In this document: piece by piece, positions 11,575 through 59,966 of the stretch | How the letters are laid out: each line of letters opens with the position of its first letter | How positions within the stretch are numbered: the first letter of the stretch is position 1 | Assembly: GCA_951406725.2 (NCBI GenBank) | Contig: OX597834.1 | Span: 18,972,001 to 19,036,000 of the forward strand | Source: Octopus vulgaris | Lineage: Eukaryota | Direction: 5' to 3' | Length of the DNA stretch: 64,000 nucleotides | The notes under the pieces: model-generated | What the model saw: only the letters and a program-made list of their open reading frames with translations | Told to the model about the DNA's origin: nothing | Database searches by the model: none | Translations under genes and position numbers: made by a program

Positions 11575-11734
11575 TTTTTTTTCTCTCCTTGTTTTTTCTG
11601 TGTCCCTTTCTGTAGAAGAGCGTAGGCTCGAAACGTAAAAGACTTTTTCTATTCCTGAGCGTTATACTAATACATCTGTTTGTTTTGTACACCACCTGTT
11701 TTCGTCTTTTGTTGTTTTTTTCATAAACTCTCCC
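11575..11734 (+). mobile_element. Family D: ~160-bp element in a (TA)n tract carrying a minimal hammerhead-like motif
   Basis: Homologous copies at 53851 and 55612 and a relative at 35495. Flanked on both sides by TA repeats. Confidence 0.85.
11606..11641 (+). ncRNA. Minimal type I hammerhead ribozyme-like motif (A6U variant)
   Basis: CTTT-CTGTAGA-A-GAGC-GTAG-GCTC-GAAA-CG-TA-AAAG. Stem I is CTTT/AAAG, stem II is GAGC/GCTC, stem III is palindromic ACGT. Confidence 0.65.
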
Positions 11735-15820: not shown

Positions 15821-16161
15821 CACAAACCTGTTATCAGTTCAAATATGTTTGAGGCATATTTGAACCCATAAGACAGCTATTCACTGTTTTTTTGTCACAG
15901 AGAAAATTTCCTATTGTTTGCAAATAGGTGTAAATACATTAAGTCAGTTCATTGTGCTCCCTAACCAGACTCTTGGGTGCATGTATTTTGGAGCGGTTAT
16001 CTCCTCTTTAGCACCAGAGACAGGGAACACTGAACTGATTTTATGTATTTACATCTGTCCGTCTACAACAAGAAATTTTTCTCCAGAACAAAATGCAGTG
16101 AATGGCTTTCTTTATGGTCTTGAATATACCTAAAGCATATTTGAACTGGTGACAAGTTTGT
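15821..16161. repeat. Old fold-back (long imperfect inverted repeat, ~140-bp arms)
   Basis: ACAAACCTGTTATCAGTTCAAATATGTTTGAGG... pairs with ...CCTAAAGCATATTTGAACTGGTGACAAGTTTGT. Confidence 0.85.
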
Positions 16162-28961: not shown

Positions 28962-29099
28962 TATTACATACATAAAAAAGGGATGACCTGTAAGTGGACA
29001 TCCATTATGCTAGAAGATCCGCTATGGTCTTACCACCGGATCTTCTTCTAGCATAATTGATGTCCACTTATAGATCATCCCTTTTATATGTATATAATA
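28962..29099. repeat. Fold-back hairpin with ~60-bp arms at the start of a TA-flanked segment (28955-29215)
   Basis: AAAAGGGATGACCTGTAAGTGGACATCCATTATGCTAGAAGATCCG pairs with CGGATCTTC(TTC)TAGCATAATTGATGTCCACTTATAGATCATCCCTTTT. Confidence 0.9.
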
Positions 29100-37906: not shown

Positions 37907-38482
37907 TACATTTATATATGTATGTTGTTGATAAATCATAAATCCAATAAAGAAGTACACTCTATATTACAGAGCAGTAGAGTATATAAATAAAGATGGA
38001 TAATGGCCAGTCTATGGCCTGGGTTTTATGTCCATAACATGCTTAGCATCACAGTGTTTCTTGAGAACCTGAAACCCATTGGCTTATAGCCTCTCTTGCA
38101 AATGGCCTCTCAGAAGATGGAATAGCCTCTTGCTAGAGAGGCCATTGGCCAACGGGTTTTAGGATCTGAAGAAACGCTGTGATGCTAAGCACCTTATGGA
38201 AGTGAAACCCAGAGTATCCCTGTAGACAAGCCATATCTGTCCTTATCTACATATATATATATATATTTATGTGTGCATGTCTGTATTTGTCCCCCTGCCA
38301 TCACTTGACAACTGATGCTGGTGTGATTATGTCCCAGTAACTTAGCGGTTCGGTAAAAAGAGACCAATAGAAGTACTAGGCTAACAAAGAATAAGTCCTG
38401 GAGTTGATTTGTTTGACTAAAACCCTTCAAGGTGGTGCTCCAGCATGGCTGCAGTCAAATGACTGAAACAAGTAAAAGTAAA
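37687..38482 (+). mobile_element. SINE family A with a ~330-bp insertion in its central TA tract
   Basis: Head at 37687-37848, tail at 38270-38482. Confidence 0.9.
37983..38252. repeat. Fold-back element inside the SINE A microsatellite
   Basis: TCCATAACATGCTTAGCATCACAGTGTTTCTT...AAACCCATTGGC pairs with GCCAACGGGTTT...AAGAAACGCTGTGATGCTAAGCACCTTATGGA. Pairing extends outward imperfectly. Confidence 0.85.
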
Positions 38483-51014: not shown

Positions 51015-51582
51015 TCATCCCCCTTTTCAAGCCTAACCAGGCTCATGGTCCCGGTTTCCCAGTTTCTGTGGTGTATGTGTTCCCCCCAGCTGGACAGGAC
51101 GCCAGTCCATCACAGAAATAAATGCACCCTTTTAAAACCTAGCCAGGCTCATGGGCCCGGTTTCCCAGTTTCTCTTGTGTATGTGTTCCCCCCAGCTGGA
51201 CGGGATGCCAGTCCATCATAGGAATAAATGCACCCTTCTCAAGCCTAGCCAAGCTCATGGACCTGGTTTCCCAGTTTCTGTTGTGTATGTGTTCCCCCCA
51301 GCTGGACAGGATGCTAGTCCATCACAGAAATAAATGCACCCTTTTAAAGCCTAGCCGGGCTCATGGGCCCGGTTTCCCAGGATTCAATGGCGTATGTGTT
51401 CCCCAGCTGGATGGGATGCCAGTCCATCGCAGCGTTACTCATTTTTGCCAGCTGAGTGGACTGGAGCAACGTGAAATAAAGTGTTTTGCTCAAGAACACA
51501 ACGCGTCACTCGGTCCAGGAATCGAAACCACAATCTTACGATCATGATGCTGACACCCTAACCACTAAGCCACGTGCCTCCA
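51015..51582 (-). mobile_element. tRNA-derived SINE family E with its 3' ~107-bp module present four times, inside one 13-bp TSD
   Basis: Head GGAGGCACGTGGCTTAGTGG...GGTTTCGATTCC, core GTGTTCTTGAGCAAAACACTT and GCGATGGACTGGCATCCCATCCAG. TSD CTTTAGTTTGCAT at 51002-51014 and 51583-51595. Confidence 0.92.
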
Positions 51583-53850: not shown

Positions 53851-54040
53851 GGGAAAGTTTATGAAAAAAACAAAAGACGAAGACAGGTGGTGTACAAAAC
53901 AAACAGATGTATTAGTATAACGCTCAGGAATAAAAAAAGTCTTTTACGTTTCGAGCCTACGCTCTTCTACAGAAAGGTACACAGAAAAAACAAGGAGAGA
54001 AACAAGGAGAGAAAAAAATGTGTGTAGTGGCTAACGATCT
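53851..54040 (-). mobile_element. Family D hammerhead-bearing element (motif at 53941-53976)
   Basis: The 36-nt motif is identical to 11606-11641. Abuts (TA)n. Confidence 0.88.
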
Positions 54041-54281: not shown

Positions 54282-54564
54282 CGTTTATATATTTGTTGTG
54301 CAAGATTTTTTATGTAAAGTCGTGTGTTGAAACAGATATTGTTATATTTCGGAATGGTCATTTTGCCAGTTTAGCCAATAAAAACACATGCACAATATAT
54401 TTGGTGTTATTTTGCTTCAGTGTTATTTATTTTTTATATTAATGTAAAAAAAAAAAATATAAAAAAAATAATAATAACACTGAAGCAAAATAACACCAAA
54501 TATATAGTGCGTGTGTTTTTATTGGCTAAACTGGCAAAATGACCATTCCAAAATATAACAATAT

Positions 54565-54565
<1 letters not shown>
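54282..54565. mobile_element. Fold-back insertion (~93-bp arms at 54335-54428 and 54472-54565) between 15-bp direct repeats
   Basis: Arms differ at only a few positions. AATATCAACAATATA at 54267-54281 and 54560-54574. Confidence 0.88.
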
Positions 54566-55614: not shown

Positions 55615-55780
55615 AGAATTCACAAAAAAAAGCAAAAGACGAAGACAGGTGGTGTATACAACAGATGTATTAGTTTAACGCTCAGGAAGTGAAAAAGTCT
55701 TTAACATTTTGAGCCTATGCTCTTCCACAGGAAGGAACACAGAAAAGAACCAAGGAGAGAAATTAAAGAATGTGTAGTGG

Positions 55781-57753: not shown

Positions 57754-58506
57754 AATTTGACATGCCTCTGGTTTTTGCTTTCCTCTATCATCTCTCTCTC
57801 TCTCTCTCCCTCTCTCTCACTTTATATTTTTCTCTTCTTCATCTTCTTTTTCTTCTTCTCTCCCTTATCACTTGCAGTCAATCAGCCAAAAGCGGCAGTT
57901 TGGTGATAGATAAAAGTCTTGTCATTAATCGAAGCATTATAGTTGACAGTAATGTCTGTCATGTGTTTCAGAGCAAACATTGAATTCAATCCAAACTAGT
58001 ACACATCCATTAGTTAAACTTGGCAGCTTCATGCTCATCTAAAGTGCCGGCATTTGGAGGCTTCATGCTGTAATGTGCTTCTCAGTTTCTGCAGTTCCCA
58101 TGTTCCATGATCACAAGTGGAATTAAGATGAGGTTACACTGTCACAAGTGGCATTAAAACATAGCTAACCAATTGTATCCAGTGCCCTGGTTGCTGCCTT
58201 TGAATCTAACAATAATTTTGGTAAATGACAAGTACAGATATCATACAAACATACATGTATTCTTACACTGAGAGTTAGGTACCATATGAGGAAAATATTG
58301 TTTTTCCTTCTAAATGAATATGAATAGAGATTTGAAACATACCTATGAACAAATAGCTTCCAGCTATGATCATGCCAACCTTTTGTATATATCTCAATTA
58401 TGTTGTCCAACATAGCTTACCATTTTTGTTCTGAAGCTGAGGGATATTTAGTAGCCATCTCAAGCAGGCCAAGTAACTACATATAGATGCTCTTCTTAGC
58501 TTGTGA

Positions 58507-58623
58507 ACTTTAGTTTTTAGATAAGAGGGGTATACATATGAATATACATACATATATATATGTATGCATGTATATATGTATGTATATTCATATGTATATC
58601 CATCTCATCTAAAAACTAAAAGT
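58507..58623. repeat. Palindrome with ~50-bp arms
   Basis: CTTTAGTTTTTAGATAAGAGGGGTATACATATGAATATACATAC pairs with GTATGTATATTCATATGTATATCCATCTCATCTAAAAACTAAAAG. Confidence 0.85.
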
Positions 58624-58640
58624 TATATATATATATATAT

Positions 58641-59336
58641 ATTAATCAAAGGACATACTGAATATGTCTACCTGTTGGAAATAAGTCAAAACTCTTATTT
58701 AAACCACTGATAATAACTATGTAAATCAACTGTCTGCAAGCATACAGGTTAAGAAAATCATTCAATAACCCAATATAGTGCCCAGCTATATATATTTTCT
58801 AGTATTTGGACTCATGTGGACCAGTTTCTAAACTGGCATTATAGCCTCACCTTCTTTAGCACATGATGAAAAATCCCCCAACTGTCTGTGCTGCAACTGA
58901 TTGCTTTTGTACCAAATCATAGCATTTTCAGTGTGAAAAAAATAATTCCAATACAGAGCAAATAATTCAGCAGAAAATATTTGTGAAGATACCATTAACT
59001 CTATTATTATCTAGGATAAAATAATTAAATTGATAATTACAGAATTAATAATATAGGCGGCTGGAGGCCCAAAAAAGGCATTAAGTAGCTGAACGGTTAA
59101 AATTTATATTAATCAAAGGACATACTGAGGGTGTCTACCTGCTGGAAATACCAGTCAAAACTCTTATTTAAGCTGTTGAAAAAATAACACTGATAATAAC
59201 TACAGAAATCAACTGTTTGCAAGCATAAGGGTTAAGAAAATCATTCAACATTCCTATATAGCACCCAGCTATATATTTTCTAGTATTTTATCCTAGATAA
59301 TAATAGAGTTAGTGGTATCTTCACAAATTTTAGCTC
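58641..59336 (-). mobile_element. TA-flanked Penelope-like non-autonomous element: direct repeat, inverted segment and hammerhead motif
   Basis: Direct repeats at 58641-58808 and 59107-59289. 45-bp inverted repeat at 58979-59023 and 59284-59328. Hammerhead-like motif at 58812-58866. Confidence 0.7.
58812..58866 (-). ncRNA. Type I hammerhead-like motif (G5A-decayed)
   Basis: TCATGTG-CTAAAGA-AGGTGAGGCTATAATGCCAGTTTA-GAAA-CTGG-TC-CACATGA. Perfect 7-bp stem I and GUC cleavage triplet; stem III probably ACCGGT before CpG decay. Confidence 0.6.
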
Positions 59337-59400
59337 CATATATATATATAAATAGTAAGTGTGGCTTGTTAGCAATTTTTCAACTGCAAGGCAAAAATAT

Positions 59401-59966
59401 ATATGTCACTAAAGTGACTGAGTGTACTATTCAGCACCAGTATTGTTAGAAATTAGAATTGAAACATAGCAACAATAATGCACCGTCTTATTTACTGACA
59501 AAGAGGTGAAGCTTCCTAATCAAGTATATATTTCTTTACAACCCATGAGGGGCTAAACACAGAGGGGACAAACAAGGACAGACAAAGGTATTAAGTCGAT
59601 TACATTGACCATAGTGCGTAACTGGTACTTAATTTATCGACCCCGAATGGATGAAAGGCAAAGTTGACCTCGGCGGAATTTGAACTCAGAACGTAACGGC
59701 AGACGAAATACGGCTACGCATTCCACCCGGCGTGCTAACGTTTCTGCCAGCTTGTCAGTGGCTCTCAGAAGCACCTTGGGTTAAACTCAGTTTGCTTAGT
59801 CAGCTTACAAGATCACCGTAGAAATATAGCTAAGCCCAGTGTTTAAGAAGTTTGTTTCCCTTGTCAGTAAATAAGACAGTGCGTTGTTATGGCTATGAAT
59901 TGTATTGACTCTTATTTCTAGCAACACTGGTGCTGAATAGTGCCCTCAATTGCTTTAGTGATGTAT
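59401..59966. repeat. Old fold-back (~120-bp arms) with SINE B inserted in the loop
   Basis: TCACTAAAGTGACTGAGTGTACTATTCAGCACCAGT...GTCTTATTTACTGACAA pairs with TTGTCAGTAAATAAGAC...ACTGGTGCTGAATAGTGCCCTCAATTGCTTTAGTGA. Confidence 0.85.
59530..59753 (-). mobile_element. SINE family B
   Basis: Near full-length family B. Confidence 0.95.

Follow-up and report, generated by a model that had tools for sequence, protein, structure and literature searches.

Close to one end of a 64,000-nt stretch of Octopus vulgaris DNA, referred to here as the window (contig OX597834.1, positions 18,972,001 to 19,036,000, assembly GCA_951406725.2), a short element combines a partial tandem repeat, an inverted segment and a hammerhead-like motif. 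Such a combination raises the question of whether the element is a remnant of a Penelope-like element (PLE), or a unit of a different kind, and how it came to lie between two TA tracts. The surrounding DNA is microsatellite- and SINE-rich animal sequence. The element itself belongs to a multi-copy repeat of ~480 nt that encodes no protein, and it is an old and broken representative.

Layout of the element

An earlier note, made from the letters of the window, had described a direct repeat of ~170 bp, a near-perfect inverted repeat of 45 bp, a minus-strand hammerhead-like motif and two ends in (TA)n. All four features are present, and above chance. The two copies of the direct repeat (58641-58807 and 59108-59288) differ by 17 substitutions in 165 aligned columns and by three indels with 18 letters in total; BLAST aligns them at 81% (E 1e-47). 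The inverted repeat (58979-59023 and 59284-59328) has one mismatch in 45 positions, and can also be matched as 48 nt at 96%. Both repeats are thus as described. The description of the ends holds for the left one, which lies in a (TA)9 tract (58624-58642), while the right one adjoins only (AT)6 (59338-59349). Positions within 3 nt of a (TA)6 or longer tract make up 2.9% of the window. A target-site duplication is unreadable within TA repeats, and a second copy of the element was not found in the 64-kb window.

For comparison with other copies, contigs of public DNA runs were aligned to the locus at 80% likeness. Majority letters are depth-weighted and were taken position by position, in runs X1, X2, X4 and X13, from contigs chosen for their likeness to the locus copy; variant rows and loose ends of contigs are among those listed, and pairings in the family letters were judged by eye.

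The element consists of two arms. The long arm (58641-59288, minus strand) spans 648 nt, or 1.35 units of a non-coding monomer of ~481 nt, as judged from the repeat offset and the bridged junctions; its RNA 3' end is joined to the (TA)9 tract. Read on the minus strand, its order is R2-X-B-Y-hammerhead-R1. R1 (58641-58807), the unit part 3' of the hammerhead, terminates at the TA tract. It is preceded by the decayed type I hammerhead (58812-58866), recognised from the copy's own sequence and the family letters, and by Y (58867-58969), the unit sequence 5' of the hammerhead, which was delimited by eye from loose ends of family contigs set against the copy. Segment B (58970-59023) is internal, and the short arm is its second copy. 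Segment X (59024-59107) is the unit sequence that follows R in the family, as loose ends before 59108 and 59132 indicate in four runs. R2 (59108-59288), the second copy of R, stops 11-15 nt short of the equivalent of the predicted cut, and 6 extra nt stand at the X-R2 junction of the locus copy. The short arm (59284-59337, plus strand) comprises 54 nt of segment B in reversed orientation, with its RNA 3' end at the right TA tract, (AT)6. The G found at 58971 in the majority of family contigs lengthens the match between the arms to 58970, and hence up to the tract. The inner ends of both arms have the 5-nt microhomology TATTT (59284-59288) in common.

The (TA)9 tract that bears the left end of the element is also abutted by a fold-back at 58506-58623. 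Its halves of 54-57 nt are 93% complementary and centred on a TA/CA tract, and it is apparently low-copy flank DNA. It could reflect snap-back synthesis during the insertion, or be unrelated.

The hammerhead in the locus copy and in its family

The motif at 58812-58866 of the minus strand is made up of a 7-bp Watson-Crick stem I, the core CUAAAGA, a stem II region of 24 nt and GAAAC-UG-GUC. It is the only match to a strict hammerhead descriptor in the window, and the same descriptor has no match in 40 block-shuffled windows. A looser descriptor gives three real matches versus three in 100 shuffled windows, none of the shuffled ones with a stem I of at least 6 bp. Rfam reports no hammerhead at gathering score in the window, nor at E up to 10 in 58400-59600; its matches to microRNA models correspond to an AT-rich fold-back, and all are below cutoff. 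Cleavage is predicted after GUC, between 58819 and 58818 on the minus strand.

The letters of the locus copy deviate from the conserved core of a type I hammerhead: G5 is replaced by A, and position 11.1 is U. In addition, the predicted fold ties up GAAAC in a decoy hairpin whose pair probabilities are 0.69-0.94. Because of these three features, the ribozyme of the locus copy is predicted to be very likely inactive.

A plus-strand candidate for a second hammerhead in the direct repeat (CTGA...GAAA...GTC, at 58659 and 59125) was rejected, since it has no stem I and its G is absent from the family majority at 59127.

The family letters restore what the locus copy has lost. The 136-nt hammerhead stretch is matched by 151, 121 and 91 contigs in three runs, most of them less than 95% alike, and the summed depth in X1 is ~11,000 versus ~45 for single contigs, a figure that is not a copy number. 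On the evidence of these contigs the element is a family of many copies, in keeping with the proposal of a multi-copy ribozyme-bearing family. In all four runs, C at 58857 (80-97%) restores G5, C at 58855 (77-89%) makes N7 a G, and G at 58823 (76-89%) gives ACCGGU, a palindromic stem III. G at 58830 (85-92%) and at 58831 (75-89%) yields G-C pairs at the base of stem II, and with C at 58815 (69-75%, four runs) the 3' arm of stem I gains a CpG. The family majority, with G5, C11.1 and the palindromic stem III, therefore reads CUGAGGA ... GAAACCGGUC, which has the conserved core of a type I hammerhead. The consensus predicted beforehand proved right for GAAACCGGUC; its core was to be CUGAAGA and is CUGAGGA, still of the form CUGANGA. 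Variant rows on the hammerhead stretch occur only at 58822, 58823, 58830 and 58831, in a table that seems limited to the middle of the stretch; in this same, seemingly middle, part GAAAC and GUC have no variant rows, and the CpG between them decays.

Stem I of the locus copy needs a different explanation. In 6, 13 and 5 contigs, the loose ends behind 58854 run without a break through the core and one arm of a 6-bp stem I. Compared by eye with these loose ends and with those behind 58862, the locus copy appears to be without 8 nt at the border of Y and stem I, which the family has in the 5' arm of stem I. By the same by-eye comparison, the family stem I appears to consist of 6 bp, a 3x3 internal loop and a further 3 bp. 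The perfect 7-bp stem I, which had been singled out together with the GUC site as a mark of the motif, is thus present at the locus but probably a by-product of the 8-nt deletion: the deletion would have shifted an upstream look-alike into place, and the decay of one CpG would have completed the 7 bp. One X2 contig (record 17, with 10 differences and one gap) seems to carry the same deletion.

An extra A follows A9 (position 58852 in the locus copy), and the family keeps another A between C11.1 and G12, with no variant row at 58829. Stem II of the family is apparently composed of 2 bp, a 3x3 loop and 3 bp, and its inner letters are of low agreement. The extra A before G12 and the short, interrupted stem II could indicate that the ribozyme is weak or a variant. 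The internal loop of stem I and, with low agreement, that of stem II both read UAA opposite AGU in the family letters.

The family is present in runs X1, X2, X4, X10 and X13, which are labelled with four or five different organisms, so it is older than their split. It comprises two subfamilies, which differ by ~24 nt between R and the hammerhead; R1 and R2 both belong to the rarer one. Two family-like contigs come from a run that is only guessed to be RNA, and are uninformative on transcription. A pattern scan of metagenomes for the layout of the family core gave eight matches, all of which were rejected as GC-rich coding DNA without stem I or likeness.

The repeating unit and its known relatives

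The ends of the two R copies are 481 nt apart, and each junction implied by this spacing recurs elsewhere. The passage from R to the hammerhead is seen in other copies in all four runs, as joints from 59224-59269 back to 58789-58797. The passage from X to R is seen in loose ends before 59108 that match X, in at least 34, 36, 30 and 44 contigs. Diverged contigs cross the remainder of the unit: X1 record 2 covers hammerhead-Y-B-X, and X1 record 4, X2 record 19, X4 record 28 and X13 record 9 cover B-X-R. On this evidence the unit is a closed loop of ~480 nt, with every junction bridged by other diverged copies. No loose end among those listed leads out of it.

The unit has a GC content of 0.32, and the longest open stretch in the element is 60 codons. 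Linkage to an open reading frame for a PLE reverse transcriptase (RT) or GIY-YIG endonuclease had been anticipated. None was found at the locus: a Pfam search of the 140 stop-free frames of at least 45 aa from 50-64 kb, out of 548 in the window (the remainder being outside this interval or of low complexity), gave no match to either domain, and its four weak matches to other families are all below cutoff. Because no such frame is present at the locus and the unit closes after ~480 nt, it is, as far as its sequence tells, a non-autonomous, retrozyme-like unit and not the ends of a coding element. The locus monomer, which is a decayed copy and not an intact one, folds no better than shuffles (z -0.86). 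A start of an open reading frame within stem II, as in the Anolis element, was considered and rejected; the AUG is present, but its frame stops within a few codons in the locus copy and, by eye, also early in the loose ends of the major subfamily.

Two parts of the unit deserve mention in their own right. Contig depth on its last ~70 nt (59102-59180) is ~10x that of the hammerhead. Here the letters of the family majority fold into a short hairpin, ~12 nt from the unit end. The high depth may mean that this terminus is shared with sister families or with a partner element, or that it is better conserved. Segment X contains, on the minus strand at 59050-59090, a run of six U and a TATA-like stretch, ~30 nt ahead of the short arm's inner end; this may be a promoter.

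At the level of DNA, the likeness of the family to animal non-LTR retrozymes extends to a head-to-tail, non-coding unit of a few hundred nt, a single type I hammerhead, a low GC content (32%, below the 45% taken as the limit for retrozymes) and dispersed copies (PMC7229834; 10.64898/2026.07.22.740005). At ~480 nt, the unit exceeds the 170-400 nt given for invertebrate retrozyme RNAs by Cervera and de la Pena (2020, PMC7229834) and lies inside the range of 51-972 bp of Li, Clavereau and Pollet (2026, 10.64898/2026.07.22.740005). The latter preprint reserves the term 'active' for two or more units in succession whose hammerheads are complete. With 1.35 units and one broken hammerhead the locus falls outside this rule and is therefore, by its sequence, a decayed retrozyme-like copy, not an active retrozyme. 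Its inverted second arm and its ends in TA tracts are absent from the retrozyme descriptions in the available parts of these two sources (PMC7229834; 10.64898/2026.07.22.740005).

These very features are shared with endonuclease-bearing (EN+) PLEs whose pLTRs contain hammerheads, in which a partial tandem, an adjacent inverted 5'-truncated copy and a TA target are found (PMC4209133; PMC8557442; Anolis Poseidon, PMC11167929). As in PLEs, the insertion's 3' end lies inside the RNA, downstream of the hammerhead. The hammerheads are alike as well: both are of type I and have an extra nucleotide separating position 9 from 10.1 (here A 58852) and a short, 2-bp stem III with a palindromic loop, here ACCGGU (PMC4209133). 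An extra A after A9 and a palindromic 2-nt loop 3 are characteristic of PLE hammerheads, for which function as a dimer has been predicted (PMC4209133; PMC6765202). Unlike EN+ PLEs, the locus has no RT/GIY-YIG frame and is thus not an autonomous element; on the unit, 138 nt separate its outer ends, unlike the 30-40-nt 'tail' between RT starts in PLEs; and the extra A before G12 distinguishes the family from PLE hammerheads. This A between C11.1 and G12 and the short stem II lie outside the published hammerhead descriptions available here.

In the literature searched, no description of such a family in octopus was found. An annotation of octopus repeats lists 31 recently active Penelope-like families, and its main text makes no mention of ribozymes in the part available (PMC13282606). 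The family adds a cephalopod-type member to the animal retrozymes. It likely behaves as animal non-LTR retrozymes do, with Penelope machinery as its vehicle, and is an unexceptional example of a type of mobile element already known.

Probable insertion into the microsatellite

The locus is a decayed copy of this non-coding ~480-nt hammerhead unit, and a borrowed Penelope-type RT/endonuclease, priming on both cut strands, probably inserted it into a TA microsatellite. The two arms (648 and 54 nt) stand back to back, with RNA 3' ends facing outward at the TA tracts and 5 nt of microhomology between them. The Penelope-type footprint of a partial tandem with an adjacent inverted 5'-truncated copy is present, as had been proposed, with the amendment that the supposed inverted end is the short arm, copied from inside the unit and not a terminal repeat. 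At this one locus, the target is an AT-rich microsatellite. Partial tandems, adjacent inverted 5'-truncated copies and a (TA)n bias have been described for Penelope-like elements (PMC8557442), and in vitro work on a purified Penelope-type protein has shown it to nick both strands at AT-rich DNA, to extend them and to start inside the RNA (PMC11167929). Mobilisation of retrozymes by Penelope-like elements has been proposed (PMC7229834; 10.64898/2026.07.22.740005). A Penelope insertion footprint on a protein-less hammerhead unit fits this proposed, unproven dependence of retrozymes on Penelope enzymes.

The template, the enzyme and the succession of events are inferred as follows. The RNA, of minus-strand sense, would be a tandem transcript, or else a circle joined at the site of the hammerhead cut. 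Cleavage by the family hammerhead would require a dimer, formed via the palindromic stem III ACCGGU. One strand would start synthesis within the RNA, where R ends, and copy 1.35 units; the other would start 138 nt farther on, where B ends, and copy 54 nt; and the two cDNAs would be joined at TATTT. A fixed second start at 58970 is putative; contig depth is already high at 58948. Other copies contain at least three further strand-switch joints, each seen in two or three runs and there in a single contig, which suggests that inversions recur in the family.

R2 could derive from a second RNA or a second insertion, given that it differs from R1 by 10% substitutions and a 14-nt indel and that 6 extra nt stand exactly at the X-R2 junction. 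Such an account, in which a second copy (R2 and the inverted arm) was inserted into an existing copy at its X-R junction, or template-jumped onto it, would need neither a multi-unit nor a circular template. The inverted arms differ at only 1/45 positions, and the Anolis enzyme is known to cut ATT in its own pLTR junction (PMC11167929). Two events are nonetheless unlikely. The difference between R1/R2 and arm/arm divergence is not significant (Fisher p 0.13), the X-R junction is common in other copies, and R1 and R2 are of one minor subfamily, with common non-majority letters at the equivalents of 59127, 59226 and 58781; their shared minor-subfamily segment before 58789, together with the p value of 0.13, is as a single event would give.

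Descent from an autonomous Penelope-like element, with the locus holding its terminal (pLTR) remnants and the coding part lost at the locus only, would account for the palindromic loop 3 and for the nucleotide added behind A9, both as in PLE hammerheads (PMC4209133), and a longer partner sharing the last ~70 nt of R could cause the ~10x depth there. This explanation is very unlikely, given that all junctions of the 480-nt loop are bridged by other diverged copies, that the loose ends listed contain no exit from the unit and that 50-64 kb holds no RT or GIY-YIG match. It is highly improbable, too, that a dispersed repeat was moved or rearranged at the DNA level, as a satellite fragment, local duplication or fold-back, with the hammerhead as a passenger. 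The unrelated 54-nt fold-back directly to the left does indicate that the site can form inverted duplications by itself, but the inverted arm has its second copy in the interior and not at an end, each outer end is an RNA 3' end that meets a TA tract, conservation of the core letters contrasts with the decay of CpG neighbours, and other copies have strand-switch joints of their own. A DNA transposon or MITE was rejected, one arm of the inverted repeat being internal.

Conceivably, each arm breaks off where the template RNA had a natural 5' end, so that insertions of this family would record cleavage in vivo, via a hammerhead variant with an extra A before G12, and the start of transcription; this is a rather improbable reading. 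The distance of 11-15 nt between the stop of the long arm and the hammerhead cut has a chance of ~3% of arising by coincidence on a 481-nt unit and was noticed post hoc, and the short arm stops ~30 nt behind the TATA-like stretch, of a kind common in DNA this AT-rich. Contigs, which are poor at showing a pile-up at the cut site, have no depth step at 58807-58819 and no cluster of ends among those listed, which argues against the arms recording cleavage. A tie between arm ends and the ribozyme cut, if true, would matter, as cleavage is dispensable in the sole in vitro Penelope system (PMC11167929). This possible tie and the conserved extra A before G12 are the small points that are possibly new.

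The window holds further repeats. A min-hammerhead family of ~155 nt occurs at 11577-11734, 53851-54005 and 55624-55762, with the core CUGUAGA or CUGUGGA, and U at position 6 in all three copies. Its stem II has 4 bp, and its 3' end lies in (TA)n. It is probably the family, called D in the earlier note, to which the present element was said to be unrelated; indeed, the likeness between the two is no better than that of shuffles. Common to both are a type I-like motif with an additional A behind position 9 and the location of the 3' end in (TA)n, whereas the ~155-nt family differs in forming single pieces with a CUGUAGA core, no stem III loop and no tandem or inversion.

Directly after the (AT)6 tract, another high-copy repeat starts (59350-59500). 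An inverted counterpart lies at 59861-59961, separated from it by a SINE; the two are likely parts of one MITE-like element that the SINE has interrupted. Four fold-back segments, each single in the window (15822-16161, 28965-29096, 38019-38212 and 54335-54565), are probably MITE-like; two of them are flanked by TA tracts. Finally, 51021-51432 consists of 3.9 tandem copies of a 106-nt unit of a SINE-like family.
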